A stretch of DNA of 64,000 nt, taken from Dipteris shenzhenensis. Lineage: Eukaryota. Numbering within the stretch: position 1 is the stretch's first letter; each line of letters starts with the position of its first letter. The notes under the pieces are model-generated. The model was not told the origin of the DNA and searched no databases. It saw only the letters and a list, made by a program, of their open reading frames with translations. The DNA lies in NCBI GenBank assembly GCA_047967505.1, contig CM106538.1; one strand, written 5' to 3'. The position numbers and the translations under genes are program-made. Shown in pieces: positions 4,832-61,672 of the stretch.

Positions 4832-5374
4832 AATATAGAAATTAAGGTTTACTAGGTCACCCCTTCTCAATTTAAAGATTATTCCAAAAGGTTGGCTTTA
4901 GTACGTGTTTTGAAGGCAAAAAGTTCAAAACTTTGACTTTTAGGATTTTGGGAATAATTCAGGCTACCCATATGTTTTAAAAATGGTGCATAAACTTATC
5001 CCTATTGTAAATATATTTCTGTAATTTTGAAGAATAATACTACCCCACATTTAGAACTCTCATGGTACACTTACATTTCCCAAGGTGACCCCCCAGGCTA
5101 TAATATAGAAATTAAGGTTTACTAGGTCACCCCTTCTCAATTTAAAGATTATTCCAAAAGGTTGGCTTAAGTAGGTGTTTTGAAGGCAAAAAGTTCAAAA
5201 CTTTGACTTTTAGGATTTTGGGAATAATTCAGGCTACCTATATGTTTTAAAAATGGTGCATAAACTTATCCCTATTGTAAATATATTTCTGTAATTTTGA
5301 AGAATAATACTACCCCACATTTCGAACTCTCATGGTACACTTACATTTCCCAAGGTGACCCCCCCGAGGCTATA
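4832..5374. repeat. Near-perfect 270-bp tandem duplication
   Basis: AATATAGAAATTAAGGTTTACTAGGTCACC starts at 4832 and 5102; the two units differ at only a few positions. Confidence 0.95.
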
Positions 5375-6114
5375 ATCTCCCATTAAGTGTCCATTAAAGC
5401 ATCTAAAGGCGTGTACAAAGAAAAAGGGACACACTCAAGCTTTCAAAACTACACATCTTGGAGCTACACCAAGGTATTTCAAAAGGATTCTTGACTCCCA
5501 TAAAAGATTTGAGGCCTAGTAAGGGAGAGCTAGACCACATAATCCCAAGTAATGATGAAAAGTAGGAGGAAGATCCTCTGTAGTAGATCTGCAATCCTAG
5601 TCCAAATGATCTTGGCCTATTTGGGGCCTATTTGCACTCCCAAAGGTAGTGCTAAATAGACAGAGTAGAACTAAAAGCACCAAGGATAAGAGTGATCAAC
5701 TTAAAAAAATAATCATTCACCACTGATTCAATGCAATCCAAGACCAAAAAAGAGAATGACAAGATTAAAAGACAGTCAAATCATCAAGATTAGAGATCTA
5801 TTTATGCAAGAAAGCATAGCGTCCTAATGCAAAGGACAATGAGAGCAATAAAGACAGAACAACTTTATAGAATTGTCTAGAATTCAAGAAAATGCAAGAA
5901 GACTGCATACTCATCACAAAAGGATAATTCCATCAATAGCATTCTAAAATTTCCCATGACATAAACTACTCTACCCAAACATGCATGTTGCATATTGGGA
6001 GCTTCTCGGCCTTTTTAAATATAAAACACCCTTTTGTAAATTAACCTTTCGATCTTAATTTATTTCCTTATGTATATATAAATCTGTAAGTAATGGAATT
6101 AATAAAAACCCATC

Positions 6115-7204: not shown

Positions 7205-7340
7205 GATTTCTTAGTTTTGTCCTTTGGTGTGTGTTTTATTTTGCTCTTTATGTCTTAATTCGGACTAGGTGATTTCTTAGTTTTGTCCTTTGGTGTGTGT
7301 TTTATTTTGCTCTTTATGTCTTAATTCGGACTAGGTGATT
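7205..7340. repeat. 66-bp tandem duplication next to a (GA)n microsatellite (7152-7180)
   Basis: GATTTCTTAGTTTTGTCCTTTGG...CGGACTAGGT at 7205 and 7271. Confidence 0.95.
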
Positions 7341-14875: not shown

Positions 14876-14877
14876 TT

Positions 14878-20800: not shown

Positions 20801-21842
20801 GATGGGAGCCCACCATGTGATCTCACTCTTTATCAGTAGGCTGTTGGATGCCGTACTTATATATGTCACACCAGACCTGACTTATAGTATGCAGTATCTC
20901 AGCTCAGCAGATTCATGCACATGCCCAGTTCACAGCATTGGCAGGCAGCATTGGCAGGCAGTGAAGAGAGTCTTCAGATATTTCAGAGGCACTCAGGATT
21001 TAGCCCTCTTCTATGGTGATCAGGGTTCACTTACCATGCATGCTTACACGGATAGTGACTGGGCAGGATGTTCCGACACCAGAGTGTCACACACTGGCAA
21101 TTGTTTTTTGCTTGGCAATTCATGTATCTCTTGGCTCAGCAAGAAGCAACCAACAATTGCCACATCTAGCTGTGAGGCTGAGTACAGAGCCGCTTTCACT
21201 GCTACAGTAGAGTGTGTTTGGCTTCGACAAGTTGCTTACAGATCTTGGTATTCGCCAAACATCCTCCACTATTGTCTACACTGATAGCCAGAGTGCTTTG
21301 GCCATTATGCGTAACCCAGTGTTTCATCCGCGTACCAAGCATATTGAAGTTCACTATCATTATGTTCGGAAGCGGTTGTTAGCAAGAGACATAGAGTTGT
21401 CCTATCTTCCCACAGAGGACAACATAGCAGATATGTTTACAAAGGCACTTCCTCGTCCCAAGTTCGAAGTCTTCCAACAGGCTTTACACTTGGTTCCCTT
21501 TGTTACATGATCTGAAATCCCTTGTACATTCATAGGTGGCTATATCCTTTTGGATGAACATGTGCCACCATGACCAGAAAATACCAGGTATTCTGAGACG
21601 TTTCCAGAGTACTTCAGCCCATCCCATTGTGGGGGGTTTGTAGGCCATCTCTTGGTGGTTTTAGTGATGCCCTATAGGCCATGGTATGTGCCTTGTAGAC
21701 ATAAATATAGGCACTTGTAGTGTTAGTGCCTTTTAGGCCACATAGGACACTTAGTCCTATGTGACACCTAGGACACTTAGTCCTAGGTCTAGGTACAATT
21801 ACCTTGTACTCCTTTTTTCATCTACACTAGTTGACGTGATGG
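14878..21842 (+). mobile_element. Ty1/copia element A (chimeric, duplicated 5' region, 3' LTR truncated by element B)
   Basis: 5' LTR 14878-15138 (TG...CA); PBS TGGTATCAGAGC 15140-15151; PPT ~21629-21638; 3' LTR from 21639; domain order gag-PR-INT-RT-RH. Confidence 0.95.
17337..21510 (+). pseudogene. Copia A gag-pol with frameshifts and stops
   Basis: CNYCRKLGHDISEC knuckle; LWHERMGH (GAG-pre-integrase); integrase HSDVCGP..DRGGEY..ERKNR; RT DIKTAFL and LYVDD; RNase H DSDWAG..EAEY..KHIEVHYH. Confidence 0.95.
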
Positions 21843-29231: not shown

Positions 29232-30197
29232 GCTCTGATACCATGTTGGAAAGCAGACCTACCCATATCTCTATCTCACAGATCAAGGTAGATAGAACAA
29301 TCACATTACATCAAACACCAACCTTCACTACAAGTCATCTAATATGGAAACTTTGCCAGGATAACACACCCAAAAACGCACTTCAATGCATGTGCACACA
29401 GTAATATAGAGAGCACTTCAGATCTGGAAAGATGACACACAATAGTACAGCCAAAGGCAGATTATATCAAGTACAAAACCTGCAACACAGTAGGCCACTA
29501 CGAGCTCTCTGATACAACCAAGTATGGTACTTCTTTGTGCAACGTTTGCTCCTCGTACTGTTGTACATCTCTCCCCCGAAACGAGCGCGTGTCTCACAGA
29601 GTTCAGTAGCTGCTCATAATTGAGCTCTTCTGCTGCCTCCTTTACATTCACTAGTGCTCTCCCACAGGCTGTGCGTCTGCACCAAAGTAGTGCCCTGGAT
29701 GCCGAGGGCATGCTGCAGGCTGAACTGCAGAAGGAACTGTAGAATCCCCCCCAAGGGCGCCCTTTTATGGGGCACAAGGCTGTCAGATCTGGCCAACCAA
29801 ACTCTCCAGATCAGCCAACCCAGCCTAAGATGGCCTACTGGGGAAGCCTGCTGCCGACAGCAGGCAGGTCTCCTTGCCTATAAATAGGCACAAGGCTAGT
29901 TGCCTTTCTGCTGTGTCTTTCTCAACTATCTGCCCACCAGAGGAGCTCATTGCTGGGGATATGCCAGCCCTACCGCTAGCCCCAAATCAGGTCAAGATGC
30001 ACAGCAGCCCACATGGCTGCCCTTCTGCCAGCCCTACAGTCTGTCTGTGCTGCCCATGTGGCAGTGCTCTTTTCTTCTCTAGGATCATCCCATGTGGCAG
30101 TCCTCTCCTCTGCCCTTCCCCTATAGATGTCAAGCCCCTTTGTCCTCCTCATTTGGGGGCTCACAGGTGGGACACTGTACCTCATATTCGGACAACA
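29232..30197 (-). mobile_element. ~950-bp LTR with intact iMet PBS; internal region absent
   Basis: Minus strand TGTTGTCC (30197) to TTCCAACA (29244), then perfect TGGTATCAGAGC (29243-29232). Confidence 0.8.
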
Positions 30198-34704: not shown

Positions 34705-37700
34705 TCATGAAATCATGAGGATAATAAAAAACCCCCTCAGAGTGAGGTGGAAAGAAATGAAGAAAGAAGCCCTCCTAGCTGAGGCTGCACGGGAGTCCCC
34801 CTGCATACCCGTCCATACGGCCATCAGAGTGTGTACGATGTCTGTCCAGATACTAGCCAATGTGTGCGAGGGATGAACCTGAGTACCCTCCATAGCCTCT
34901 GTGCATCTGGATCTCCAGATATGCCAGGCTGCTATGCTCGCTATAATCTCCCAAGAAGTATCCACAGAGGCATGTACAGCTGTAAAAGGACGGTGTGGAA
35001 CCACATCCAACGAGCAGAGCTCAACCCGATGACGTCGAACCGAAATGGCCCGGGAGGAGTCAAGTCCCTCATAGAAAACCTGAGGTCCTGTAAGAGAAAG
35101 CCAAGCCACCGAGCCCCAAGTCATAAAGAGTGGGGAATGGGCAAAGTGACTGAAGATCCTGGCTATCCCCATCCAAATCAATCTCGCCTGTCTGCAATCC
35201 CATAAGCAATGCTGAATAGACTCCGAAGCAGAAAGGCAACGAGGGCAAGTAGGGTCGGCTCCGAATCTGGACCTCCAAAGGTTCACTGCAATCCCTCCAT
35301 GAATAGAAAGCCAAAAGAAGATAGTGATCTTTCTATTCCTGTGGGATTTCTAGAGCCTCCTCCAGAAGTACCTCTGCTGATCCGCAGTAATACCAAAAGT
35401 CTCCCAATGAGGAACTCTGGAGGGTCTCCAGCCTCTACTACTGAGCTGAAATCTCCTGGCATTACTGACCGTGTAACGAAAGAAGGGGATGGTCTTCTCT
35501 CGATGCCCCGCGTCAATCCACTCCCACTCTCCGGGGTCCCACTGTAAATACCTGATGGGAACTCCTATAGAGCCAAAGTCTCCAAGACCCGGTGGAGAGT
35601 AACTGGGGGTCAGGGTCTAAGAACCACTCTGAATCTGATCCCTGCATCAAAAGGCCTACGACCCTGATAGGCTGAAAAGCAGACTCAAGCAATATATCAT
35701 CTGAAGATCTGAGCAATCTGCCACCATCCTGGACACTGAAAACCAAAGCATCCTCCTGTGCATCTCGAAAGGCTAAGACCTGAAGTGGAACCCCGCCTCT
35801 CGAGAAAGTACCTGCCCAAGTGGAGGTAGTGAGAGGCATATCATCTGTGTCTATCCAAGCCTCTGGAAGGGCTGTCTCAATCTGCAAGATCCTCCCTGCA
35901 CTCCCTCTGAGATGTCCTGTCAACCTTGACTTGGTTTCCTCTGGAAGCCTACGGAAGGCTTTCCAAGATCCTAAAGAAGAAGCAGGTCCCCTCTCCCACC
36001 TGGCCCACTGCATGTAGAGTGAGGCACCCAGTGGTCTGCCACGATCATCTAAAATACTGTCGTTCCACATGATGGGCTGCCTATCAATCTCTTCCCGGGA
36101 GGAAGGAGGAATCCTCCGAAGAGAGCTTCTGAAACTAGCCCAAGCTTTCAGAATGGCAACCATGAGAGGGGAAGAAGGTGATCTGAGGTGTGCTGAGGTG
36201 AAGATCCATCTAACACTGCTCATCCAGTCTCCTCCTGAGGAAGGTGTGCACCTCTGTATGCTGCTGATAAGAAAGTCCTTCCACGGTTCCTGTCCTGGCA
36301 AAAGTCCTCGCACCACTATCTTGCAAAGTAAGGCTCTGCACTGTAAATCTGGATCAATAATATTGAGACCCCCATCCTGTGTAGGGAGGATGAGGGTCTC
36401 CCAAGCCACTCTGGCTAAGGCATCTGCTGTGCCATCAAGCCCACTCCAGAGAAAGTTCCTGATCGGTCTTCTTAGCTGAATGATGCAGTCCCTAGAACGG
36501 CACCAACATGAACAAATAAACCAGGCCGTGGCCAAGAGGACCTGGTTGACCACCACAACTCTAGAGGCAAGATCCAGCTTGGCTGAGCTCCAAAAGAGAA
36601 GCTTCCTTCTGATGCTCTCCAACACGGGAGCAAACTGCTGCGTGGTAGAAATACCCAAGCCGACCTGGCAGCCCAAATACCTGATAGGCACACCCCTCTG
36701 AACCCAAGTGAACCCTATGTCAAGTCCCCAAACTGGAGTGTCCTCATCACTGATCCAAAAGCCATTGGATTTATGCCAATTTATCTGCGCCCCTGCCGCC
36801 AAGCAAAATAAATCCAAAGCTGTCCTGAAAGAAGTCAATGTCTGTGGAGAGGCATCCAAATAAATCGTTGTGTCATCAGCCAACTCACTGTCAAGCAGCT
36901 CCTCTTCTCTTCTGATAGAAAGTCTCAGCCCAAAGATGTCAGCTTGAGATCTAACATAGATGCTCATAGCTTCGGCCACGAATAAAAAAAGGAAAGGAGC
37001 AAGGGGGCATCCCTGACGGACTGATCTCGAAATCTGAAATCTCTCACCCCTTACCCCACCAATAAGTACCTGGCTATGGGCTGATCTGTACAAAGAGGAA
37101 ACACCTCTGATCCAAACGTCAGTGAATCCAAAGCGTAGAAGGGTGCCCTCCAAAAAACTCCAATCTACTCTGTCATAAGCTTTTTCAAAATCCAACAGTA
37201 GAATGGCAAGATTCTGGCCACTCTGCATGGCCCACTCTGAAGCTTCCCAGAAAGAAAAAATGTTATAAAAAATACATCTGCCATGCACAAATCCCGTCTG
37301 AGTGTCGTGGATAAGATCAGGGAGAAGTGGCTGCAATCGGAGGCTGATAGCCTTGGCCAGAATCTTGTAACAAGTCCCCAGAAGTGTGATAGGCCTCCAC
37401 TGGGACAATAAATTTCTGCTACCTCCTTTTGGGATAAGGTGGATGAGGCCCTCTGTAAGCGATTCAGGCATCTCGCCAGAGTCCCAAATGGCCTGCATGC
37501 CTGAAGTAATATAGTCTCCAATCATATCCCAAAATGCAATGAAAAAAGACGGGGTAAGGCCATCTAAACCTGGGCACTTGCCCTTGTGAAGGGCTGAAAG
37601 TGCAGTCCTGAACTCTGTGTTGGTGAAAGGTGCGTCAAGTAGAACATGCATATCCGGATTCACCAACACTGGGATACTCTGCCAAATAGCCTGTCTAGCA

Positions 37701-39007
37701 TCCTCTATATCGTGTGTCTCAGGATCAGCAGTAAGGAGGGTGGCATAGAAATCTGAAGCTATGCGTAAGACGTCATTTGGCTCTGTCTGTAAAACCCCAT
37801 GTGAGTCAATAAGCTGAGATACACTCTCTCTACTATGTCTAGGGCCAAGAGTAGAGAAAAAGTGTTTATTGACTCTACCACCCATCTGAATCCAGAAGGA
37901 CTCCCGTGCATGAAAGGCATACTCTGCTCTCTGATCAAGCAATAACTGCAGATGAGCCCTCGCTGCAGCAAGGCGCTCCTGAATCCAAGCATCTGAAGGC
38001 CGTTTCTGCTCTTCCCTCTGCAAAGCTGCTAACTGCTGGCGAACACCAATCTCACGTCTGAGAATATCTCGTCTCCTGGTAGAAGCAACTGAGCAGTAAA
38101 AGTCGCTAATACCAGAGAGGGCAGCGGCTAAATGTGAAGGATGTGGCTGCCCTCCCTGGACATGAGCAAACCATATCCGTAGGGCTGCCTCTGTAAGGTC
38201 CTCCTCTGTGTAAAAGGCATCTGGAATCCTGATGCTGGCAGATCGGCCTCTCAAGTGAGGCTCTGAGATAGCCAGAACAACAGGGAAATGGTCTGAGGTG
38301 GAAACCCCCGCAGCAATGCATACCGATCCACCTCTGTCTAGTGCCCAGTCATCTACATAAAATCTGTCAATGCGTGCATGAATAGGCATCTGTTGCCTCC
38401 TGTTCGACCAAGAGAACAGGAGGGACTGTGGCTGAATAAGAAAGGCATCATCACACCAAATATCTCTGCCACAGAAATGGAAAAGGAAGGCATCCCAAGC
38501 TGCTCTCTCCAAAGAGTGAAGTCCGCCTTCTCTACCCCCTTTTTTGTCTGAAGGTAACTCGACCATGTTAAAGTCACCTCCAATCACCCAAGAATCCACA
38601 ATGGGGGCCCGGGAGAGCAAAGTCTTCCACATAAGGACACGTTCCCCTCTAATGTTGGAGGCATATAGGTTGAGGAAGCCAACCTTACGCCCTCCAATCA
38701 AAAGAATAATCCACTGAGCTCTAGAGGGGATAATGACTCCGTGCCCAACAACTAAGGGGAGAACCGACTGCGAAACTGAAATAGAAGTGCCACCCCTAGT
38801 GCCCAATGCAGGCGACCAAAAAGTATGTCCTGAAAGCAACTTGCCTGACTTGGCACAATCTCTATAATCCAGCTTGTGCTCTTGAATAAATAATATATCA
38901 ATGGGACCCCCAGTAACACCTGGATGAAGCTGATCCCGGATCAGCTGTCTACGGCGGCGATGTGGGACGCCACCTAGGCCCTGTATGTTCCAACTGATAA
39001 TCCTCAT
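34705..39007 (-). pseudogene. LINE ORF2 (APE endonuclease, RT, C-terminal zinc finger); frameshift ~35565 and stop ~35350
   Basis: SWNIQG, QE, GDFN and SDH endonuclease motifs; WRPITL, DFEKAYD, RQGCPL and LADD RT motifs; CPRC...HCLWDC in the downstream frame. Confidence 0.95.
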
Positions 39008-40563
39008 CGACGGGAGGATGTAGAGTGGAACACCTTACCCGACCTAGTGGCGGAAACAAACCCCTCAACAGGGGAAGACCTCCTGCTCGAGGAAGGAGGG
39101 AAGGAACCCAGTGGAGGAAAGTCAATAGGGGAAAGAATCCTGGCACCTGAAGAAGAAGCCCTGTCAATAGGAAATCCAACCACTGGCTCCCCAAAAGTAG
39201 CGGGCACAAACTCCTCCTCTGGGAAATCTGAACTCTCTGCCAAGGCTGAAAACGAGTTCCTGTGAAGCAATCCAGACACCGGAGTACGAAGGATCCCTTG
39301 TGAGGGAAGAGGATCAACAGTGTAAGCTATCCCCTTCCCCCTGTCCAAGGGAGGGAGTGAGGAAGGCTCTCTACCCGGTGTCTGCCCAGCCGCGGAAATC
39401 TCTCCGTCCTCAAGAGGAACATCTGGCAGTGCTGGATCTAAGGAAGAAGCTGCAACTGGGGAGGAGGTCGAAGCTTCAGCGTCTCGGACTGTGCAAGGTG
39501 AGACAGGAAGGACAGCTCGAGGTGAAGCAGAGTCTACTAAGGTACCCTCGTGAACTGAAGGAGGGACCTGCACACGTACTGGAACCCACTGTAAAGCGTC
39601 GCGTGTGCCTGAGGGAGGTGGGGGTCGAGGAGCAGGTGAAGGACCTGTACCACCCCCCTGACGAGGCCGAGGAATAGGTACTGGACCTGTACCACCACCT
39701 GACTGAGCAGGACCGCCACGTGAAGAACGAGGAGCAGGAGCTGGACCTGTACCACCCCTCTGTCGAGGTCGAGGGGCAAGTGCCGGGTCTAATCCCCCCC
39801 CCTGTCCCCCCTGTCGATGCCCTGAGGCGGTAGCTGTACCAGAGGGCTTCTTAGGCCTTTTCTTCTTCCTGGGACAATCCCTGGCAAAGTGTCCCGAGGT
39901 CCTGCAAATCCTGCACTGGTCCTGCCTGCCTGAAATCTCCACTCTCTGGCGAAAAAAGAAACCATCCGGGCGCTGTATCATGACGTGGTCCATCTCGAGG
40001 TTAGGATCCTTGCAAAGGACCCTAACTCTAGGAACCCCATCAGCCTTGGTTGCCTCTGCTGCAGTCAATGGCAACCCAGGGAGGGGTGGGATCTCAGCAA
40101 TTGCGCCAAAATGCTCCCCAATAACAGAAAGAAGTCGATGGTAAACCTGGGGAAGCCCGGGGAACCTGATGAAGAGCGAGAAGAATTTCTTATCTGCCTC
40201 CACTGGGTCGAAACCAAGGTGAAAGGCTTCAAAGAAGATCTTCCAGTGTCCCTGGTGTAAAAAATCGGCCTTGAGCACAGTGCTCGCAGCCTCTGGAGTG
40301 TCAAAAACAACCTGGAAAAAACCTCGTCCCAGAAGGCGAACATCTACCAATCGAGGAGCGAGGTCTGGGGGGAGAGCCGCAAGCATCCAGTCTCTGGCTT
40401 GGGATCTGGAAGGGTGAGACCCGAAGATGCGTGCTAGCAAAGTGGTAGAGCACTCAATCTCTACATCCTTCTTGAGCTGCTGCAACTCGTCTTTAGAGAA
40501 AGTGATAGTTTTCGCGGCCGGTGGAGATGGAGTAGGATTGGCTGACGGGGAATCCATCGCCAA
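39004..40563 (-). CDS. LINE ORF1 (DUF4283/RRM-like region, CCHC knuckle, Pro-rich tail), intact 519 aa
   Basis: LGRGFFQVVF, CRICRTSGHFARDC, three GGGTGPxPxPR repeats; stop overlaps the ORF2 ATG (ATGA). Confidence 0.92.
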   Translation of the reverse strand: MAMDSPSANPTPSPPAAKTITFSKDELQQLKKDVEIECSTTLLARIFGSHPSRSQARDWMLAALPPDLAPRLVDVRLLGRGFFQVVFDTPEAASTVLKADFLHQGHWKIFFEAFHLGFDPVEADKKFFSLFIRFPGLPQVYHRLLSVIGEHFGAIAEIPPLPGLPLTAAEATKADGVPRVRVLCKDPNLEMDHVMIQRPDGFFFRQRVEISGRQDQCRICRTSGHFARDCPRKKKRPKKPSGTATASGHRQGGQGGGLDPALAPRPRQRGGTGPAPAPRSSRGGPAQSGGGTGPVPIPRPRQGGGTGPSPAPRPPPPSGTRDALQWVPVRVQVPPSVHEGTLVDSASPRAVLPVSPCTVRDAEASTSSPVAASSLDPALPDVPLEDGEISAAGQTPGREPSSLPPLDRGKGIAYTVDPLPSQGILRTPVSGLLHRNSFSALAESSDFPEEEFVPATFGEPVVGFPIDRASSSGARILSPIDFPPLGSFPPSSSRRSSPVEGFVSATRSGKVFHSTSSRR

Positions 40564-40619: not shown

Positions 40620-41300
40620 AAAAGCTGCGAGGGGCAAGGGAGGGGAAAGGGGGGAAGGGGAAAGGAGGCTAAGAGGAAACAGGGGGGAAGGGGAGGGAAG
40701 GAGGAGAGGGGCTGGGGCTGAGAGGGGAGAGGGGCAAGCTGAGAGGGAGGGAGGGGAAAGGAGAGGAGAAGAAAGGGAGGAGTGAGAGGAGGAGAGGGGG
40801 CGGGAGAGCAAGCAGGGAGGGGGCAGGACAGCAGGGGAGGGGGCGGAGGCAGGGAGAGGGAGCGGAGCAGCAGGGGGGAAGGGGCGGAGGCAGGGGGGAG
40901 AGGGGGAGCAGCAGGGGGGAGGGGGCAGAGGCAGGGAGAGGGGGCGGAGCAGCAGGGGGGAGGGGACGGAGGCAGGGAGAGGGGGCGGGACAGCAGGGGG
41001 CAGGGGGGAGCAGCAGGGGGGAGGGGGCGGAGGCAGGGAGAGGGGGCGGAGCAGCAGGGGGGAGGGGACGGAGGCAGGGAGAGGGGGCGGGACAGCAGGG
41101 GGGAGGGGGCGGAAGCAGGGAGCAGAGGGAGGGAGCGAGGGACAGGCAGGGGGAGGGGGCGGAGCAGCAGGGGGGGAGGGGGCGGAGCAGCAGGGGGGGA
41201 GGGAGGGGAGCAGCAGGGAGGGGCTAGGGACAGGCTGAGGGGGGAGAGAGACGGGCTGAGGGAGGGGGAGCAGCAGGGGAACGGGGAGGAGCAGCAGCTC
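40620..41300 (-). repeat. Extremely C-rich (G-rich on +) tandemly repetitive LINE 5' UTR
   Basis: GGCAGGGAGAGGGGGCGG and GGAGCAGCAGGGGGG modules; ~102-bp unit at 40931 and 41033. Confidence 0.9.
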
Positions 41301-44330: not shown

Positions 44331-47300
44331 AGAAACATATCTGGATGAATCCAAGAACATGCCCGAAGTTATTCTCTAAAAATACAACACGTGCAGTTTC
44401 AATCTCATGATAGTCACTCATAAGGTTGAAAACTGAAGGGACGATCGCAAAATAGAGAGTGCAGGTAGCAAAGAGTCGTACCATAGTTTAGCAGTCATGT
44501 CAAACTTAGATAATGAAAAGGTACAAGTACAAGGTACTTGTACCTAGACCTAGGACTAAGTGTCCTAGGTGTCACATAGGACTAAGTGTCCTATGTGGCC
44601 TAAAAGGCACTAACACTACAAGTGCCTACACTTATGCCTACAAGGCACATACCATGGCCTATAGGGCATCACTAGAACCACCAGAAGATGGCCTACAAAC
44701 CCCCCTCCATGGGATGGGCTGAAGTACTCTGGAAACATCTCAGAATACCTGATACTTTCTGGTCATGGTGGCACATGTTCATCCAAAAGGATATAGCCAC
44801 CTATGAATGTACAAGGGATGTCAGATCATGTAACAAAGGGAACCAAGTGTAAAGCCTATCGGAAGACTTCGAACTTGGGACGAGGAAGTGCCTTTGTAAA
44901 CATATCTGCTATGTTGTCCTCTGTCTCCTGCTGACAACCGCTCCCGAACATAATGATAGTGAACTTTGATATTCTTGGTACGCGCATGAAACACTGGGTT
45001 ACGCGCAATGGCCTGGCTGGCAAATACCAAGATCTGTAAGTAACTGTCGAAGCCAAACACACTCTACTGTAGCGGTGAAAGCTGCCCTGTACTCAGCCTC
45101 ACAACTAGACGTGGCAACTGTTGGTTGCTTCTTGCTGAGCCAAGAGATACATGAATTGCCAAGCCAAAAACAATTGCCAATATGTGACACTCTGATGTCG
45201 GAACATCCTGCCCAGTCACTATCCATGTAAGCATGCATGGTAAGTGAACCCTAATCACCATAGAAGAGGGATAAATCCTGAGTGCCTCTGAGATATCTGA
45301 AGACTCTCTTCACTACCTGCCCTAGTATGACATAAATAAATAAGGCATCCAATAGCCTGCTGATAAAGAGTGATATCACATGGTGGGCTCCCATCATGAG
45401 CTGAGAATTTGAAACTAGGGTCCACTGGAGTAGAGATTGGCTTGCAATCCTCAAACTGAAAACGATCAAGGAGCTGTACAATATACTTGGACTGAGACAT
45501 CATGATACCCCCCTCAACATGAGCAAACTCAATGCCCAAATAATAATGAAGCCGTCCCATGTCTGACATGTCAAAAATCTGCTGCAAATCAGCCTTGAAA
45601 GCTGCAATTTGCTGAGTATCTGAGCCCGTGATGAGCATATCATCCACATATAAAATCAGCACTAAAAAATCAGATCCACTCCCACGGACATAAAGAGTGG
45701 GTTCTGTGGGACTATTATGAAAACCAAGGGATAGTAAGTGTGCATGAATTTTGGCATACCATGCCCTGGGTGCCTGCTTCAAACCATAAAGGGCTTTTCT
45801 AAGCTGGCATACCTTATTTTCAGAATTAACAACCTCAAAGCCAGGAGGTTGTGTGACATAGACTTCTTCCTACAGATCCCCATGAAGAAAAGCAGTCTTG
45901 ATGTCAAGTTGGTGCACTTGCCAATGATGATGGGCTGCAATGGCAATGACACATTGAATGGTAATCCTGGATGTGGGAGCAAATGTCTCCTCAAAGTCAA
46001 TGCCTTGTTGTTGGGCATACCCTTTTGCAACAAGACAGGCTTTGTATCAATCTATGCTGCCATCAGATTTCCTTTTTAATTTTAGACCCACCGCGTTCCA
46101 ATGGCATGCTTGCCAGGAGGGAGATCTACTAATTCCCATGTGTCATTTTTGGCAATAGATTGTAACTCAGCTTTCATTGCATCCATCCACTCTTTGCTGT
46201 CAAAAGCATCTTTATGGCACAAAGGCTCTTCATTGCAAGCTGTAGCAAGGAGTGCAAACTCAAGAAAGTGACCATGCTGTCTATTCCCTGATCTTGTCCG
46301 GGCAGCAAAAGGCTGATCTTGTTTGCTGTCCCTCAATGTATCAAGAAGCCATCTGGGAACTTGCCTTTGCTGTCTATTGACAGCTCTTTCTTTAATGACT
46401 GCACCATGAGTAGTGGGATCATTTTGTGCCAGAAGAGAAACCTGCAAACCAGCATGAGGAAGTGGCTGATTATTGCTTGGTGGAGGGCCTGCAGGAGGCT
46501 CATGTTGCTGGTCAAAATCCTCTTCTGATGATGGCAGAGGTAACCAAGATTCAAAGGCATCAAACATGTCAACATCTGGCTTTGCTTTGCAGTCCACAAG
46601 AGGAGAAGCTGAATGTTCAGCAAAGATTACATCTCTAATGACAATAATCTTCCCAATATTTGGTTGATATAACCGATACCCTCTGCTCTCCTGGCTGTAA
46701 CCAATAAATATGCATTTGATTGCCTTGTCATCAAGCTTGTGTCTCAGCTGAGATGGTACATGAACATATGCAAGAGACCCAAAAACTCTCATGTGTGAAA
46801 GTGCAGGCTTCCTGCCTTTCCATGCTTCATAAGGTGTAATGGTCTTCAATGCCCGTGTAGGTGATCTATTCAGCACATAGTTGGCACACATTACAGCATC
46901 AAGCCAAAATTTATTCGGCAAAGACTTGGCCTTAAGCATGCATCTGGCCATCTCCATTATTGTGGACCTGTTTTTCCTTTCAGAAACAGGATTCTGCTGA
47001 GGAGTGTAAGGAGTAGTGCATGAGTGAATAATGCCCCGTGAAGACAGAAATGCATCAAACTCCTTTGACATATACTCTCCCCCCCTATCTGTGTTGAGGG
47101 TGACAAGCTTGCATCCTAATTCATTCTCAACCATATTCAGCCATCTTTGAAAGCATAAGAAAACTTCAGATTTGGCCTTTACAGGATATACTTAGCAATG
47201 TCTTGTGAAATCATCAATGAGAGTCATGAAATACTTATACCCCCCAATGGCATTTTGACACATCCCACCACTCCTGAAACCTCTGATCTGCAAAACAAAC

Positions 47301-47789
47301 ACACACCACATGAGAACTGAGCCGGCTGCTCACCACCCAACCATGACATCTACGGGATGTGATCCCAATCAGGAGATGTCCCCTCCGAGCCACGAGCTGA
47401 GCTACTGGCACGAACTCCCAATCAGATCCAAACCAGCCTGGTGTCCCATACCACCAGGTGGCGCTGTGAAGCCCTGGATCTGCCACTGGGCCTTGGGCTA
47501 CGCTAAGATGCAGGCGCGCGTCCGTGACTCAATCCAGGAACAGACTTTGCACTTGGGAACAAAACTTGCTCTCAACTGCATACTGAGAACTGAACCCCCT
47601 GGGCCCCTTTTATAGACTCGGGCCCCGAGCGCCAAAAATAGCAAAGACCTATAAATAGTTCGTACCCTTGCCACTCAACCCGAGAATCAAGCCTGCCTAG
47701 CTCTAAGCCTCCCCAGGCTACCTGAGCTAGTCTAGTGTACCCAGTACACGTCAGATACCAATCCGTGCACATGACATACTCCCCCTCCT

Positions 47790-50700
47790 CTAAGAACTCA
47801 CTCCTGAGTTCGCTATAAAACTCGGAAATGTTCTTTGGAGGTTTTGTAATGTCTCCCATGTTGCATCCTCCTCAACACGATCCTTCCACTTGATTTTGTA
47901 TTCCGTGATAGATCGATTACGAATCTGTCTGTCACGAAATTCAAGAATACACTCAGGTTCGTGAGGAATAAAAGTCAAATCTGTAACTTCTATTATCTCG
48001 TGAGGAGAAACAAGTTGATCTTCTGCACCCAAAAGTTCTTTCAGTCTACTGACATGAAAGACTGGATGTACTTTAACATCAGGAGGCAATTCTAGTCGAT
48101 ATGCAACTGGTCCAATTCTTTTAATGACCTTGAATGGGCCACATTATCTGGGGGATAATTTCAGAACCAAACCAATACTTAGGCTCTTGGATTCCTTGGG
48201 AATTCGCAAATATACCATCGTTCCTTCAGAGAACTCTCTAGGTGAACGATGTCTATTAGCATAAAATCTGTCCCGATCTTGGGCAGTTCTAATAGACTCC
48301 TTGGCAAACTGCAACATTTCCTGCATATCTAGCAAGAAGTTCTTAGCAGCATCATTTTGAATCCCTTTTAATCCAACCATAACTGGTGACTTAGGTTGAA
48401 ACCCGTACATAAGCATAAAAGGACTGTAACCAGTACTAGAATGCTTTGCACTGTTGTAAGCAAATCAATCATAGGTAGATAATCTTCCCATGAAGACTGT
48501 CTCTTAGATACATATGCCCGAAGCATGTCTTCAACCAACTGGTTAACCTTCTCTGTATTGCCATCGGATTGTGCATGATCCGAGGAACTCATACTTAGAG
48601 TAGTTTCTAACTTCTCAAAAACAAGTGTCCAAAAATTACTTGTAAACTTTGAGTCCCTGTCACTGACTATGTCAGATGGCAAACCATACAGCTTAAACAA
48701 GTGGTCCACAAACTCGTGAGCCAACTGAACAGCTGAAATAGTTGTTCTAGTAGGTAAGAATCTAGCCATTTTTATCAACCGGTCGACTATGACCCAAATG
48801 GAGTCATGACCCTTGCGCGTTCGAGGCAAACCAGTAATAAAATCCATGGAAATACTTTCCCATTTATTACCTGGAATCTGTAATGGCTGTAATAAACCCG
48901 CGCTTCTAAGGCGTTCTGCCTTAGTATCCTGACAAACTCGGCAACCTACTACATAGTTCTCAATGAATGCACGCATCTTTGGCCAATAAAAGGTATGCTT
49001 CACAAGAGACAGAGTCCTATGTATACCCGGATGTCCAGCACTAGGAGCATCATGACACTCCCAGAGAATCTTGGATTTAAGGTCCAGAACATCAAGCACA
49101 CAAATCTTTTCATTCCGGAACAACAAGCCGTTCCTAATCATCCACTGACCTCCCGCCGCCTGTACTGTAGGTAGCACAATCCCTGAGTCCTGGTCAACCA
49201 TGGAGCTCCCATCCTAGACTCTCTACCAATAAGAACTGAAATGACTATCAGTTGCGTATAGCCCTCTCAAGGATTGAAATAGGTCTGAGGATATTTCCGT
49301 AAATGACAAAGCATTTACAAACTTAACTCGACTTAAGGCATCCGCCACACTATTCAACGAACCCTTACGATAACGTATTTCAAAATCAAAATCTTGCATT
49401 AATTCTGCCCATCTAGCTTTCCGTCCCCTCAATTCAGATCCATCACACACATACTTAATTGACTGATGATCAGTCAATACAAGGAACTTTGAACCATACA
49501 GGTAGTGTCTCCAAACCTTAAAGGCATACACTACAGCATAAAGTTCCTTTTCAAGTGTGGGCCAACGATATTGAGTGTTGTCTAGCTTCTTACTCTCGAA
49601 AGCTACAGGTCTGCCCTCTTGGAATAGAGCTGCCCCAATCGCATAATCACTCGCATCGGCCTCTAAAACATAAGGCCGGGTAGGATCGGGTAATGCAAGA
49701 ACGGGTGCTTCCTTGATAGAAAACTTCAAGGTTTCAAAAGCCTTGTTCATTGCATCATTCCAAGAGATCGGCTGGGTAGACCTGCGTCCATGACCTTTCA
49801 ATATGTTTGTCAAGGGTGCCGTGATATGTGAATAACCACGCACAGACTTCCGTAGAAATACCGTAAATCCTAGGAAAGAACGAAGTTGTTTCACAGTCTG
49901 AGGGATAGGCCATTCTAAAACCTTCTGGATACGATCCAGATCAATGCTAATACCTTCAGAAGAAATCTTGTGTCCTAAGTAAATGATCTCCTTCATAAAG
50001 AAGTCACATTTACTCATCTTGGCATAGAGCTTATGCTGTCTTAGAATAACTAAGACAATCCGGAGGTGTCCGATGTGATCCTCAAGCGTTCGACTATATA
50101 CCAAGATGTCATCTAAGAATACTACAACAAATTTGCCCAGAAAATCCCTGAACAAATCGTTCATCATCTGCTGAAAGGTGGCAGGAGCATTGGTCAAACC
50201 AAAAGGTAGTACAAGAAACTCGTAATGACCATACCTAATTCGGAATGCGGTTCTATCTATGTGTTTAGCATAGATACGGATTTGGTGATAACCCGTACGC
50301 AAATCAATCTTAGTGAAATACTTCGCTCCGGCCAAACGCTCTATCAAATCATCGGAACGAGGTAGAGGGTATCGATTCTTAATTGTCACTTTATTTAATC
50401 GTTTATAATCTATACACATTCTCCAGGTAGAATCTTTCTTCTTTCTTAAGAAGAAAGGTGCACCCCAAAGGTGATTTACTTGGGCGTATATAGCCCATAT
50501 TCAGGTAATCCTGTAGCTGGGTAGCTAACTCATCCTCCTCGACCTGGCTCATCCTATAAGGTGGCACACTAATAGGTTGAGCCCCTAGGACTACGTCTAT
50601 GCGATGATCTACTGCCCGTTCTGGAGGTAAACCTTCCGGCAGTTGAGTAGGGAATACATCCTTAAAACTATCTAATAACATTCTCAATTCACGGTGTTCA

Positions 50701-52370
50701 AACACACTTAAATCATTCTTGTTAATTACAGAAACAACAAATGAAGAAAGCGGAATCAAAACACACTGATAGACATCATAATGAGAAGTGTTTAATATAT
50801 TTCGAAGCTGCATCGCAAATACAATAAGTCCCTGATAAGAGGGAATTTTATCACACTGAATACAAAATTGGGTGCCCTTATCTACAAAAGAAAGTGTATG
50901 CTCCGTCCATCCAATCTGAATATTGTGGGTTTTAAACCACTCTATTCCAATCAACAAGTCTACATGCTCCAGGTGCATAACATAACACGTAAGAACCCCT
51001 GTGTAGGCTAACATCCGGATAGGAAGCACTTCAACCTTGCGATCCCAAAACTGCTTCCCAGCTGGAAGCTGCACCTCATAGGTGTGGTCGCTAGGTACTG
51101 TGGACAGCCCCATCTTCTGCACAAATTTGTAATTAACAAAATTGTGAGAGCTGCCCGGATCAAAGAGAATGTGAACTTGTTGGTCCCTAACTTCTCCATA
51201 AACTCGAAAAAGATCATGGGAACCAAACAACGAAGTATTGAAAGTACAATTACAAGAGAGTGGGCAGGTAATGACATTTACAGAAATACCTGTCATCGAG
51301 ACTTGGTTCGCTCCCTTGGCTGTGGTACGTGGACCCGCCTGGAGCTTCGGTCCGAGCGCTAACTTTTGATTCTTGCGCTTTGGACACTCATTCTTGGTGT
51401 GGCCCCGCTCCTCGCAATAGAAGCAACGTCCTTCTTTCTTGAGCTTCAAAGTACGAAGGAAACGGGCTTTACCATTCTTTGCCTGAGTCAAGTGTTTCTT
51501 GGAGGCGTTGTTCGTAGACTTCGTCTCCCCAGTACCAGTCCTAGGCTGAAAGAACTTGCGTTTCTTCTTTCCACTCGTGTCGGAAACTGTAGTTGCTTTT
51601 GCACCGGCCATGGTATCATCATAAATACGCGCGTAATTCATGGCCTCTTGCAACGTTGTGCATTTGTTGTTCTTTATTTGCAACTTGTATGAATCTGGCA
51701 AACCATCCACAAAGAAACCTAACAAGGTCACTGGATCCATCTTTGTGGCCCTGGTCTGCAGATCTCGAAACCTTTGAAGATAAACTTCAAATGACAAGTT
51801 CTGCTTTGACATATCGAGGGCTTTAAGCTTGCCAACGATATCATAATCGTCCTCCTTCTTCAGGAACTCCTTCCTGAAGACCCCTTCGAAATCTATCCAT
51901 GTATCTGGCTTAGGCTGGAGTTCCTTCCACCATAGCAACGCCTTACCTGACATGAAACCGGCTGCAAGCTGGATTTTCTTCTCATCTGGGTACGGGTGGA
52001 ACTGAAAGTGTACCTGCCACTTGTGTAACCAAGTGTCAACTACCTCCTTCGTTCGAGACTTTTGATCTCCCGGAAAAGGATCTGGAGTTATGTTCGGGCC
52101 TAGCACTGAAGCCATGGCATCCACATGCATGAGTGCCTGCATAGTGCTAGCCAGAAGAGTGAGAGTCGTCTGAATCCCTTGGAGTTGCTGTGTCAACCCC
52201 GTTTGATTCGCATTAACCTGCTCGAATTTTCCATCTAGAGCAGTGGTGAATTCACTGAAGGCCTTTTTCGTAATCAGGTCATTATAAAGACCCTGATCTT
52301 CCTCTCCCACAGGAGTGTAATCCAAATCCTGCTCTCCCATGGTGAACTCGGGATTTGCAGAATCAGACAT
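47790..52370 (-). pseudogene. Gypsy D gag-pol: Gag, CCHC, protease, RT, RNase H, integrase, chromodomain; several frameshifts
   Basis: CFYCEERGHTKNEC; LFDPGSSHNF; CIDYKRLN..FLDD; DASD..TDH..ADALSR; GHPG and SDRD; chromodomain [19 protein letters not shown]. Confidence 0.95.
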
Positions 52371-52549
52371 AACTGAAATCTGATTTGGAACGAATATAAA
52401 CTGAGAGAAATAATTGAGAAATCGTAGCTGAAAGGATAGTGGAGCAGAGAAAAACTGTCCCAAGAGATGCTGACGGAAGAAGATGCTGAAAACTGGCGAA
52501 CCGCACGCGCAATAAACCCGGAGGCTGGCTGAACTCGATGCAGGCTGCA

Positions 52550-52792
52550 GCGTACGGAATTCTGCAGCAATCCGTACCGTACGGTACCCTCCTGCTGACC
52601 GTACCGGTGACGCAGCTGTACGGATGGCTGACGTGGCTGTACGGCTGCTGACGCGATCCGTACGGCTGCTGATGCAATCTGTACGGATGCTGACGCAGTC
52701 CGTAAAGTCGCTGACGTGTGTGTACGGTGGCTGACGTAGGCAGTACGGTGATGACGCAGGCTGTACGGCCGATGACGCAGGCTGTACGGTAG
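52550..52792 (-). repeat. ~21-bp period CGTAC plus CGTCA (TGACG) motif array in the Gypsy D leader
   Basis: About 13 GTAC and 8 TGACG in ~240 bp; unit on + is roughly GTACGGNNGCTGACGCANNNN. Confidence 0.9.
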
Positions 52793-55700
52793 CCTGCGCA
52801 GGCTGTCCCGAATCTCGATGGCGCAGTCACTTCGTAGAGCAGAGAGGGCTCCTTGCAAGGCTATGGCTGGGGCTGGAACCCTATCCAACTATATAGGGAA
52901 CAGGGCAGCCTAATTAGGAAGCCCTGCTTCCAAAAAAGGCTCACCCTCCCAGCTTTGGAGGGTGGTGCTTTTCGAAAAAAGCAACACCTCTTCGTAGGGT
53001 GATCGCACACTGTTCCTGCACATCGCGCCTCTCCCTGCCCTGGCCGAAAATCGTACCAGCCTTCGCACCAACACAGCCTCCACCACAGCCCCGTCAGTCG
53101 CTATCTGCTTGCCTACAACTCAGCTACCCTATCGCCTCTCTTTCCTTCTTCTCTGCTCTCTCCCTGCTACGTGCATCCTTCTCTCTCTAAAACCCTTCAG
53201 TAAATTCGAAATCTAGACTCTCTCTTTCTCCTACCTTTTCCCTACATCCTGACCACCCCTGATAACCCAGGAACCAAGCAGAATTTGCAGCAACAAATTT
53301 CGAATTTTAGGGCATACCTGGAGGAAGAAATCGTCAAAAATTCTTGCATAAGAAATTCCTACCTCAGGAGCTGGCTCTGATACCAACTGACACATCCCAG
53401 CACTCCTGAAACCTCTGATCTGCAAAACAAACACACACCACATGAGAACTGAGCCGGCTGCTCACCACCCAACCATGACATCTACGGGATGTGATCCCGA
53501 ATCAGGAGATGTCCCCTCCGAGCCACGAGCTGAGCTACTGGCACAAACTCCCAATCAGATCCAAACCAGCTTGGTGTCCCATACCACCAGGTGGCGCTGT
53601 GAAGCCCTAGATCTGCCACTGGGCCTTGGGCTACGCTAAGATGCAGGCGCGCGTCCACGACTCAATCCAGGAACAGACCTAGCACCTGGGAACGAAACTT
53701 GCTCCCAACTGCATACTGAGAACTGAACCCCCTAGGCCCCTTTTATAGACTCGGGCCCCGAGCGCCAAAAATAGCGAAGACCTATAAATAGTTCGTACCC
53801 TTGCCACTCAACCCGAGAATCAAGCCTGCCTAGCTCTAAGCCTCCCCAGGCTACCTGAGCTAGTCTAGTGTACCCAGTACACGTCAGATACCAATCCGCG
53901 CACATGACACATTTGTCCTCATTGGGCCACAGACATCACTGTGTACTAGCTGCAATTTCCTTTGTGAGAGTTTTGGACAATTCTTTTGAAAAGGAAATCG
54001 ATGCATCTTACCCAAAAGACAACCCTCACACACATACTTGGAAACTGTGTGAGTCTGAGGTACATCATTTGCCATCTGCTTTGAATGTAGCTTTGCAAGA
54101 GCTCTATAATTGAGATGGCCCATTCTCTCATGCCAAAGATGAGTTTCAGCAAGCTCTGAACCTGAAATAGCCAATGCTTCAATAGAAAGTGCAGCTGGAT
54201 GATGATCAAGGTGATAAAGCCCTTTTTGCAAAGTGCCAGTGAGAACTATGGCATTGTCATCACGAAGATCATAAACTAGACAGCTGTAGCCATCAAAAAT
54301 TACTCTGAAACTTGAAGTAGCAATTGCTGAAATTGAAATCAAGTTGACTTCAATGCCAGGCACAAAAAGGACATTTGTCAGAGTAACGGGATGGCTTGAA
54401 ATGGATGTGAGCTGCACATCTCCAACTCCTTTTACAGCATATGAAGCATTATTAGCACATGTAACAGTCCCCCCTCGAGGTGCATCAGCTAAAGAGTGGA
54501 ACAACTGCCTGCAAGATGTGACATGCTTAGAAGCACCACTATCAAAGTACCAGGACTGAGCATCATTAGCAGTAAAGAGTGCATCAGCTTTGGAGGGATC
54601 AAATGAGCAATGGACAGCCCATGCCCAATCATCCTGAAGAGCATGTGCATGTGAAGCATCTGCTGGCTCATGGGATTCAATAGCATGTGAGGCATTAACT
54701 GTCAATCCTGCTTTCTTTTTCTCCGAAGCAATGCGCTTCCTGCATTCTGAAATGTCATGTCCAGGCTTGCGACAATAGTTGCATCTTTTCTTCTTTGCCT
54801 TATCTGCTGTATTTTTAGATGCATGGGAGGAATTGCAGCTGCTATGCGCAGATTTTGGCTTGCCCATAGGCTTGGAAGCCTTGCCTCTTCCTGTCTGCTG
54901 TGAAGCAAATGCATGATCAGGAATAATGGCTTATCTGTTAGCTCTACTTTGCTCTTCCTGCAAAAGCGAAGTAACTAGCTGATCAAAAGAATAGTGGTCT
55001 GGATTACCCATGGCCACTAATCAAAGGGTTGTAGCAAACCCTTGATATGTATCTGGCAGTCCATTCAATGTGGTACTGACAAGCTGTGAATTTGGCACCA
55101 CCTCATCAATGTTGGCAAGCTGTTCCACGAGGTCCTTGACCTTTGTCAAGTATGCATCCATTGACTCACCTTCATTCATACTGACTTCCTATAATTGCCT
55201 TCTCAAATATGCAATACGAGCTTCATTGCGAATCTGATAGAGAGAAGCCAATTTATCCCAAGCATCCTTTGCTGTCCTGCAAGACCGGATGTGTGGAATA
55301 ATGATTCTCTTGCATGATAAAGCAATGCATGAATGTGCATTTGCATCTCTTGCATCCCATCTTGACTGTTCTTGAGTTGGAAGAGCAGCAGTAGGAGTGC
55401 TAGAGGAAGAGGCATCGGGAGGAGTACCCCCTGCAGAAGGACCAGCAGTAGAGGCAACCACTGAAGCATTGGCTGGCCTCAGATCAGCCCCAGAAACAAT
55501 ATTCCACAAATGCTTCGCAACAAGAATATGTTTCATGAGATAAGACCACATCGGATAGTTGGTGCCATCCAACTTATCATCTTCACGAAGAACTCCAAAT
55601 AAATCTTGATTGTTCCCAGCCATAGCAAATGTGATACCCTGAAAAAAGACCTGAAAACCCAAAAGCCTCAAGGCTATCACTGCAAAAAGCTGGCTGTCCA

Positions 55701-56103
55701 AAAATGACAGCAAATATCTGCAAATTTCTGACCCAAATCAAAGGGCAAATGCAGATCTGACCCAAATGTGACTGTGACAGGCAATGTTCACTGCAAAAAA
55801 CAGCAAATCTGGCAAAAGCCCCAAATTTAATGAGGGCAAATAGGCCAAAAAGAGGGCAAATGTAGAAAAGCCCCAAATTTTACTGAAACTTTTGCAAATG
55901 TGACCCAATGTATGTAAATCTGACTCAATGTCCTGCAGAAGTGACTCAATGTCCTACAAAAGTGACTCAATGTATAGCCTCAAGGCTTGAAAAAGCAAAA
56001 GTATGAGTTACTGTCCCAAACTCAAAAGTATGAGTTACTGCTCAGTTGAAATTAAGCTTCCAACGCAAAAGCCCCAAATTTTTGTTGACCAAATTCCGGA
56101 TCA

Positions 56104-56372
56104 AGTACAACTGTACGGATGTCAGTACGGTGCTTGTACGGAACATAGTACGATAGCTGTACGGAACTGTACGATAGCTTGGTACGTGCACACGTGACTG
56201 TACGGAGAAGTAGTACGGAATATGCACAATGTACGGATCAGGTACGACGCAGTGTACGGAACGCAGGTGTACGGCGATGCAAGTATCCGTACGTGACAGT
56301 ACGGAACGCAGTGTACGGCGACGCAGATATCCGTACGTGACAGTACGGACGTCTGGTGTGCAGGCTGTACGG
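56104..56372 (-). repeat. CGTAC motif array in the Copia C leader
   Basis: About 20 GTAC in ~270 bp, nearly all GTACG on +, many spaced 10-13 bp apart. Confidence 0.9.
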
Positions 56373-56965
56373 TGGCATAGGTAGAGCTGAGATTTGTATG
56401 AGGTTGTGGAAGCTGGGCGCCTAGATCAGCAGCACAAAAAATGGCGACTGATAGCCACAGGTGCTGTAGGAGACCTCGAAAAAGCTGCAACAGAACCTAG
56501 AAGTAGTCGCCTCTGCTGGAAAGCAGCAATAAGGTAAGTTATGGCGACAAAAATGGCTCTCGAAGCCTTAGACAGCAGTTGAAGATCCTCGAACAGGCTG
56601 AAGATGTGACAACCAGCAGAGCAACAGACTCCCAATGAGCAATGGAGGACTCGAGGGCTGAGGAGAGCTGGAAGACAAAAGCAATACCTGCTCTGATACC
56701 GCTGAAGGGACGATCGCAAAAGAGAGAGTGCAGGTAGCAAAGAGTCGTACCATAGTTTAGCAGTCATGTCAAACTTAGATAATGAAAAGGTACAAGGTAC
56801 TTGTACCTAGACCTAGGACTAAGTGTCCTAGGTGTCACATAGGACTAAGTGTCCTATGTGGCCTAAAAGGCACTTACACTACAAGTGCCTACACTTATGC
56901 CTACAAGGCACATACCATGGCCTATAGGGCATCACTAGAACCACCAGAAGATGGCCTACAAAAAC

Positions 56966-60907: not shown

Positions 60908-61672
60908 TGTTAGCACTTAGCCTTGGTACGGCCTTATAGTCCAGTTAGGATTCAGTCAACCCTCAGGTTGACTTCATTGGTCAACTCTTCTGGTTGACTT
61001 TGGACCATCACTCGTACTTTCTCATTATCCATTTGCATAGTTGTTGTCCGCTCCCTCGCAATCTATTTGCATTACATTGCTCCCCACACCCAACAGTAGT
61101 ATCAAAGCAGCTTCAAGATCCACTGCTCACCCCCATGCACATCTAGTTGCCCATTGCTTGTAGCTCGACTTAATGTTCAGCTGCTCAAGTTCTGCCGTAC
61201 ATCAGCATTGCACTTTTGTACCTACTTGCATAGCGCCGTACTGCATCTAGCTTACAGTTATACAATGCTTTAAGCTTTCCAAAAGCAAAAATTTGCATGC
61301 ATAAGGTTTCCAACATCATTCTACTCCAGTGAGTGGTATCACCCTACATTAGGCATACTCCTGTACGAGCCTACAGTAGCATCATCCCTGCAATCATCGT
61401 CCATCCATACATTTGTTATACAACTATACATTTCCCTGTACAGTTTTTGTTGTTCAATTGTACGACGTTAGACACTCAGCCGTCTATCTATACTTCGTCC
61501 ATATAGTCATACATCCGTGTGCAGCTGCAGGCGCTACTTCAATACTATATGTGTCCATACCACCTGCCATACATGTCCGTACCACCTGCCATACGATCTC
61601 TTGAAAATTACCTTACAGTACCAATCTGCAGTGTTGTACATCACCGTACAACTTGTTGTACACTGTAGAGCA
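60908..61672 (+). mobile_element. Short LTR (60908-61095), degenerate iMet PBS and GTAC-rich leader
   Basis: TGTTAG...CCAACA followed by GTAGTATCAAAGC; about 11 GTAC in 61195-61662. Confidence 0.7.

Follow-up and report, generated by a model that had tools for sequence, protein, structure and literature searches.

Among the described systems closest to the locus analyzed here is the gypsy element of Drosophila, the 5' untranslated region (UTR) of which is reported to hold 12 Su(Hw) sites in 340 bp (PMC2374998); the reader of that array is described as a host zinc-finger DNA-binding protein. In a 64,000-nucleotide stretch of Dipteris shenzhenensis DNA (contig CM106538.1; the whole stretch is hereafter called the window), arrays of a short word, CCGTAC, occupy the leaders of a Gypsy long terminal repeat (LTR) retrotransposon (Gypsy D; 47256–53909, minus strand) and of the Copia element within which it sits (Copia C; 44433–56962, minus strand), and the same word recurs in a third, decayed fragment (fragment E). 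As in gypsy, a short motif is repeated about a dozen times, with variable spacers between the copies, over ~250–350 bp of leader that is transcribed as part of an LTR element. The arrays of D and C stand between the primer-binding site (PBS) and gag with at least 10 motif copies in a few hundred bp, and the SBP domain, whose published site the word matches, is likewise described as binding zinc (PMC7490389). The differences are that the Su(Hw) motif is YRYTGCATAYYY in AT-rich spacers and that of the present arrays CCGTAC, that the two cases belong to different kingdoms and protein families, and that one word here recurs in a Copia element, a Gypsy element and a third fragment. The arrays may work like the Su(Hw)-type class, yet they are not members of it.

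Three further systems share parts of this arrangement. SBP-box cis-elements have been published as CCGTAC(A/G) (PMC6508781), as TNCGTACAA with a GTAC core (PMC7490389) and as CCGTAC (PMC10165856), and GTAC is also the core of copper-response elements; the match to the arrays extends over 7–8 bases, but the sites covered by these accounts occur singly or in small numbers in gene promoters, whereas 10–20 copies are arrayed here in retrotransposon leaders. The RM boxes of Sireviruses are described as a high-copy, short, symmetric CpG motif that forms a CpG island in non-coding plant Copia DNA and is presumed to be regulatory, though their core is CGG-CCG and, in the single Copia genus that has them, they are situated in the LTR ahead of the TATA box (and also ahead of env) (PMC2829016); the present arrays have the CpG-island property in common with them and differ in their GTAC core and leader position. 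Finally, the hypervariable regions of Tat/Ogre elements are short non-coding tandem arrays of variable unit and length, considered a product of replication (PMC7004042), but their described location is the 3' UTR and their sequence is not the same from one element to the next, whereas the present arrays are in the 5' leader, upstream of gag, with a CCGTAC core common to Copia, Gypsy and fragment E. A literature search of Creative Commons (CC)-licensed PMC and bioRxiv articles, without supplementary files, returned no description of GTAC or CCGTAC arrays in the leaders of LTR retrotransposons. As kinds of feature, retroelement leaders with arrays of host-factor sites and plant Copia LTRs with CpG-rich repeated boxes are known; what is new is the CCGTAC motif, its leader position in elements of plants and its occurrence in more than one superfamily.

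Elements were delimited by self-comparison, Pfam and tblastn, and tandem repeats were identified with TRF. The array in the Gypsy D leader (52550–52792, minus strand) has 13 GTAC sites in 243 bp (spanning 52552–52784), 10 of which read CCGTAC on the sense strand, laid out as approximately nine 20–21-bp units (CCGTAC-N6-CGTCA-N4-5), after which overlapping sites are packed into a compact run. The Copia C array (56104–56372, minus strand) has 20 GTAC sites in 269 bp (spanning 56105–56367) at irregular distances of 8–24 bp, 19 of them reading CGTAC and 13 CCGTAC on the sense strand. A partial array (A2; 16604–16706, plus strand) is found in the second leader of another Copia element, Copia A (~14876–21840, plus strand), with 10 GTAC sites between 16607 and 16703, six of them CGTAC, and a further 13 GTAC sites fall in the region 60926–61658. 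An initial annotation of this DNA had placed GTAC arrays in these leaders with approximately 13 copies in D, 20 in C, nine in A and 11 behind an LTR at 60908, and the recount (13, 20, 10 and 13) bears it out. The D and C arrays are located 318–824 bp downstream of the PBS and 180–480 bp upstream of the gag ATG, which lies at 52370 in Gypsy D (180 bp downstream of the array) and at 55623 in Copia C (~480 bp downstream).

At each site a stretch of ~8–9 bases is conserved amid variable spacers, with the sense-strand consensus (T/C)CCGTAC(A/T/G)G, in which the base after CCGTAC is mostly A, or G in D. The sites recur with a period of 21 bp in D (two helical turns), mostly at 10–13 bp in C and at 7–19 bp in A2. 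Tandem periods of 21 and 41 bp in the D array and of 15, 21–23 and 44 bp in the C array indicate that duplication supplies part of the copy number. Three of the four LTR lineages with visible leaders (Copia A/C, Gypsy D and fragment E) carry an array. The fourth, an element with an exact tRNA-iMet-type PBS at 29232–29243 (minus strand), has no GTAC array within 1.8 kb downstream (to ~27400). No recognizable gag occurs within the same 1.8 kb, and this element may be non-autonomous or interrupted.

The window is a nest of retroelements with 44% G+C and a CpG observed/expected ratio (o/e) of 0.40. Across it CGTAC occurs 86 times against an expectation of 22.79 ± 5.36 (0 of 100 shuffles reached 86), whereas the 224 copies of GTAC are not enriched relative to the ~243 expected from base composition, so the CGTAC excess is local. 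Counting both strands, there are 28 copies of CCGTAC(A/G), 24 of which are sense-oriented within the four arrays (nine in D, nine in C, four in A2 and two in E), leaving four in the other 62.5 kb.

The proposal, made at the outset, that GTAC and CCGTAC correspond to the core recognized by SBP/SPL factors agrees with the literature cited above and can be extended beyond the GTAC tetramer, as the array word CCGTAC(A/G) equals the published SBP-domain site and CCGTAC is present at 10 of the 13 sites in D and 13 of the 20 in C. SBP genes have been reported from algae, moss and angiosperms (PMC7490389). The reading that we favor, tentatively and with somewhat less than even confidence, is that the arrays are homotypic clusters of candidate sites for a host factor that reads GTAC on proviral DNA, the likeliest being an SBP-box protein (SPL/CRR1-type), and that they act as a downstream enhancer. 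It is favored because of the site-sized conservation (~8–9 bases), the 21-bp period in D and 10–13-bp period in C, and the Su(Hw) precedent; additionally, the 5' LTR of Copia C (56702–56962, minus strand) is only ~261 bp, which leaves little room for upstream control. Under this mechanism, an SBP-box factor would bind the leader arrays on proviral DNA, and the arrays, transcribed and downstream of short LTRs, would serve as a downstream enhancer or activation platform that ties transcription of the element to the activity of the factor, for example to developmental phase or copper status. The arrays would grow, shrink and reshuffle by slippage or template switching in reverse transcription, while selection in the replicating lineage would retain the CCGTAC(A/G) core and, in Gypsy D, also CGTCA (TGACG). 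A regulatory region in the leader downstream of a short LTR is also said to exist in Drosophila copia, where Wilson et al. (1998) reportedly described an enhancer in the untranslated leader; its motifs and factors are different from those considered here. The copia 'ULR' is also used in PMC2443393.

That the arrays are more than repeats is suggested by the pattern of variation among their units. Across the nine aligned units of Gypsy D, four of 99 cells are mismatched in CCGTAC and CGTCA, compared with 35 of 99 outside these two blocks (Fisher p = 1.8e-8). CCGTAC accounts for three mismatches in 54 cells, all in one degenerate unit, and CGTCA for one in 45; because GTAC served as the anchor in aligning the units, conservation of the first block is partly by construction, whereas that of the CGTCA block is not. 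CGTCA (TGACG on the other strand) is invariant in eight of the nine units, which suggests a second, bZIP-type partner in the D family. Each of the two blocks contains a CpG, the most mutable dinucleotide in CpG-depleted DNA, and this core-specific conservation argues against a neutral minisatellite. Similarly, A2 and the C array are restructured relative to each other, with different spacing, yet both are built of CGTAC cores. From these comparisons, the CCGTAC core appears to be kept by selection.

A minisatellite is nevertheless an alternative with evidence of its own. A functionless hypervariable unit could have arisen once, been swapped between families by template switching or recombination and been expanded by slippage, in which case the shared word would reflect common descent. 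The tandem structure that TRF detects in D and C fits such an origin, as does the occurrence of tandem-repeat hypervariable regions in plant LTR elements, which are described as common and ascribed to replication errors (PMC7004042). As the mismatches in the D unit avoid the CpG-containing cores, the opposite of what neutral decay would produce, and the cores do decay at CpG in the old A2 and E arrays, we consider this explanation improbable.

The relationship between the two Copia elements bears on the same question. Copia A and Copia C are 93% identical across gag-pol and therefore represent the same family, to be counted once and not twice. The A2 array is homologous to the 3' end of the C array, aligns only there, and carries CpG-to-TpG changes (CCGTAC to CTGTAC). 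Copia A is chimeric, with a full first leader lacking an array (15152–16200, plus strand) and 134 gag codons, an abrupt junction at 16603/16604, and then the array tail, a second leader and a second gag start, such that there are two gag ATGs (16201 and 17336). At the position of C's array, the first leader has ~280 bp of unrelated sequence (15442–15720). The array thus behaves as a modular segment, replaced by other sequence in one leader and interrupted by a junction in the other, as a swapped minisatellite would be. The Copia A breakpoint falls within the GTAC array, an indication that such arrays readily undergo recombination or template switching.

The third lineage is represented by array E (61195–61662, plus strand), with 12 C(C/T)(G/A)TAC words on the plus strand and one on the minus strand (four CCGTAC, four CCATAC, two CTGTAC and two CTATAC on the plus strand). 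The 12 words compare with a shuffle mean of 0.82 and a maximum of four in 2000 shuffles, and the array contains a 22-bp tandem unit at 61552–61594. It is preceded by a PBS-like site (61097–61108, plus strand) that matches 10 of the 12 bases of the tRNA-iMet PBS and by a putative LTR (60909–61096), of which the window holds no second copy. Nothing else in the window resembles fragment E, which on this basis is possibly a third LTR family. The looser array that the initial annotation had seen behind the LTR at 60908 is a CCGTAC array decayed at its CpGs.

The D and C arrays are local CpG islands, with a CpG o/e of 1.21 and 1.61, respectively, against 0.19–0.21 in Copia coding DNA, 0.27 in the C leader outside the array and 0.23 in the C LTR, in line with the initial observation that the arrays retain CpG amid CpG-poor Copia coding regions. 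The older copies contradict the accompanying idea that the leader is kept unmethylated, as they show CpG-type decay (CTGTAC in A2; CCATAC, CTGTAC and CTATAC in E), a sign that copies have no lasting protection from methylation-driven mutation once inserted. As the cores have decayed in these old copies, the intact cores of the young copies reflect selection in the source lineage, again at odds with a minisatellite free of function.

In Arabidopsis, VANDAL transposons have short-motif arrays in non-coding DNA that are bound by VANC proteins and linked to escape from silencing. The VANDAL reader is encoded by the DNA transposon itself, whereas D and C encode gag/pol domains only, and old array copies are CpG-decayed. 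Pfam identifies only gag, protease, reverse transcriptase (RT), RNase H and integrase in D and C, and a self-encoded, VANC-like reader, the parallel drawn in the initial annotation, is excluded for these two elements by that domain content.

A host protein other than an SBP-box factor, or in addition to one, could read the DNA. In one form of this alternative the site is bipartite, combining CCGTAC with CTGC/CCTGC or, in D, with TGACG bound by a bZIP/TGA-type partner; in another the array is a boundary or anti-silencing element that limits the spread of methylation. The second nearly invariant block of D (CGTCA, eight of nine units) speaks for the bipartite form, but there are no copies of CGTCA in the C array. 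The boundary form gains from the islands themselves, with CpG o/e of 1.2–1.6 resembling what is described for Sirevirus RM boxes (PMC2829016), and from the gypsy leader array, which is reported to work as an insulator (PMC2374998), while anti-silencing has against it the CpG decay in A2 and E, and the finding of no extra element-encoded protein. Taken as a whole, a different or additional DNA reader is improbable.

The spacers provide further evidence on the bipartite site and on how the families came to share a word. The best match between the D and C leaders is 17 nt long with 16 identities (blastn E 0.011) and lies between the 5'-most units of the two arrays, which both contain ACCGTACAGCCTGC, as expected of a minisatellite unit passed between families. 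CTGCGT occurs four times in the D array and four times in the C array, compared with 0.055 per kb per strand elsewhere. Four words, CTGC, CCTG, TGCA and GCAT, recur with at least two copies each in the spacers of D, C and E (four shared 4-mers vs. a null mean of 0.47; 0 of 500 shuffles), consistent with a longer site read by another factor, though no 5-mer is shared by the three arrays at two or more copies each. Outside the arrays the D and C leaders have no similarity, and most C spacers are unrelated to the D unit, both of which count against descent from a single minisatellite. The initial annotation had held that the spacers are not alignable between Copia and Gypsy and that different lineages had converged on one motif. 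The first statement applies to most C spacers and fails for the shared 14–17-nt unit and the four copies of CTGCGT in each array; the second gains a case in the decayed array E and loses one in A and C, which are a single family, and is weakened by the unit that D and C share. Given this unit and the CTGC-type spacer words, pure convergence has to be weighed equally against two other accounts, the exchange of a unit and a longer or bipartite site.

The strand on which the motif lies raises an alternative at the level of RNA. That CGTAC reads on the sense strand in D, C and A was noted from the start, and the strand counts confirm a common orientation, with 19 sense and two antisense copies in C and six and none in A2; the words of E (12:1) follow the same polarity. 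CCGUACA repeats could be a cis element in the transcript, bound by a host or Gag-associated protein or pairing with one another, that aids export, packaging, dimerization or translation of the unspliced RNA. The uniform polarity and the position in the transcribed leader, where packaging and export signals of retroelements lie, are both in keeping with this, and a review describes the packaging and export elements of plant LTR elements as unknown (PMC12786077). Folding lends the idea weak support: the D array folds somewhat better than its shuffles (z = -2.59) and two CCGUAC-N6-GUACGG hairpins fold in the C array, but the C array overall is no better folded than shuffles (z = -0.98) and there is no Rfam match. 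Further, the Gag proteins of Copia and Gypsy are unrelated, such that a common packaging signal is unlikely, and the motif exactly fits a known DNA-binding consensus. We know of no RNA-binding protein with CCGUAC specificity, and on balance an RNA signal seems unlikely.

Returning to the SBP-type reading, several observations weigh against it. The D, C and A2/E arrays are uniformly in the sense orientation, an outcome with a chance of 0.25 for a double-stranded DNA site that is free of orientation; such polarity is required by an RNA signal or by RNA-mediated exchange (a route by which a swapped minisatellite would also maintain it), but not by a DNA site. Some sites are just 5–8 bp apart, making simultaneous occupancy of all of them impossible. 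One leader variant of the Copia A/C family is wholly without an array, so the array is dispensable at least for the Copia A copy. Lastly, an SBP site alone leaves unexplained the 16 of 17 nt shared by D and C, the repeated CTGCGT and the CTGC-type words. The broader proposition, that the Copia, Gypsy and third families keep leader arrays of SBP/SPL sites by selection, whether independently evolved or passed between families as a unit, and through them couple their transcription to the host network for age, reproductive phase or copper, is possible but doubtful from the sequence comparisons made here.

Several other candidates were rejected. The 21-nt period of D prompted consideration of a miRNA or small-RNA target, which was discarded as the families share only 14–17 nt. 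Three sense frames are free of stops across the D array (52274–52888, minus strand), within open reading frames (ORFs) of 165, 204 and 807 codons, but a coding role for the array was rejected: residues 1–152 of the translated D leader have no protein relatives, and a HMMER search with the translated leader gave 547 matches (E ≤ 1e-3), of which, among the 150 matches listed, none starts before query residue 182. The stop-free frames are a side effect of repeat composition. A scan of viral contigs (IMG/VR) for three spaced CCGTACA words matched 117 stretches of phage DNA, in most of which the period is 18 bp; they are unrelated to retrotransposons. These phage runs include 43-nt matches and up to seven successive runs, and are probably coding hexapeptide-type repeats.

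The remaining structure of the elements is as follows. Gypsy D is bounded by a 5' LTR at 53388–53909 (minus strand) and a 3' LTR at 47256–47776 that are 97.1% identical, and the 5-bp target duplication CATTT on both of its sides shows that it is a true insertion inside Copia C, whose 3' LTR (44433–44699) is 97.0% identical to the 5' copy. The PBS of Gypsy D (53374–53385, minus strand) is an exact match to TGGTATCAGAGC, of the tRNA-iMet type, as is that of Copia A (15140–15151, plus strand; exact match), while the Copia C PBS (56690–56701, minus strand) is of the same type with one mismatch. The gag-protease ORF of Gypsy D (50403–52370, minus strand) has Ty3 capsid, Retrotrans_gag and RVP_2 domains, and the N-terminus of the Copia C gag (55189–55623, minus strand) has DUF4219 and Retrotran_gag_2. 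Additional Copia and Gypsy fragments are present in the window.

The Copia integrase region (18286–19584) has its closest annotated relatives in the fern Adiantum nelumboides, as dozens of hypothetical proteins (55–57% identity), and the Gypsy D gag has distant relatives only. These affinities point to a sparsely sampled host that probably lies outside the seed plants. No related loci were found for the Copia gag among viral contigs or for the Copia gag alignment or Gypsy gag among metagenome contigs, and a Protein Atlas search returned generic gag clusters only. Public runs that contain parts of these elements include one labeled 'algae metagenome', and none of those listed is RNA. In Logan contigs from four runs, the gag and LTR parts are covered and the array centers are not, with few contigs reaching the array edges; depth is 0 in four of four runs for the bin 52602–52752 and 0, 0, 0.26 and 0 for the bin 56226–56376.

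Tandem repeats also occur elsewhere in the window. A long interspersed nuclear element (LINE) on the minus strand (35513–40563) has an ORF1 (39004–40563; DUF4283, zinc knuckle) and an ORF2 (35513–39034; endonuclease, RT), and directly upstream of ORF1 there are ~600 bp of tandem repeats (40640–41300) with periods of ~20, 41 and 102 bp, so 5' tandem arrays in this DNA are not confined to LTR elements. The LINE repeats are C-rich on the sense strand, with a CCGCCCCCTCCCC-type unit followed by CTGCTGCT, and they are laid out much like the 5' UTR monomer arrays of mouse L1. In unannotated sequence, TRF identified a 270-bp unit present twice in tandem with 97% identity (4832–5376) and a 66-bp unit repeated 2.1 times with 100% identity (7205–7340).

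The control of plant LTR retrotransposons is mostly ascribed to U3 motifs of the LTR. A selected leader array for one host factor family, common to Copia and Gypsy elements, would add a new point of control and, if the SBP-type reading is true, would allow a connection of transposon activity with SPL or copper regulation to be tested directly. The persistence of CpG-rich islands within CpG-depleted elements would then be explained as well, and the case would be the plant equivalent of the Su(Hw) array in gypsy, with several transposon families sharing one host factor. If the arrays are instead exchanged units, they would document the modular swapping of non-coding segments between retrotransposon superfamilies.

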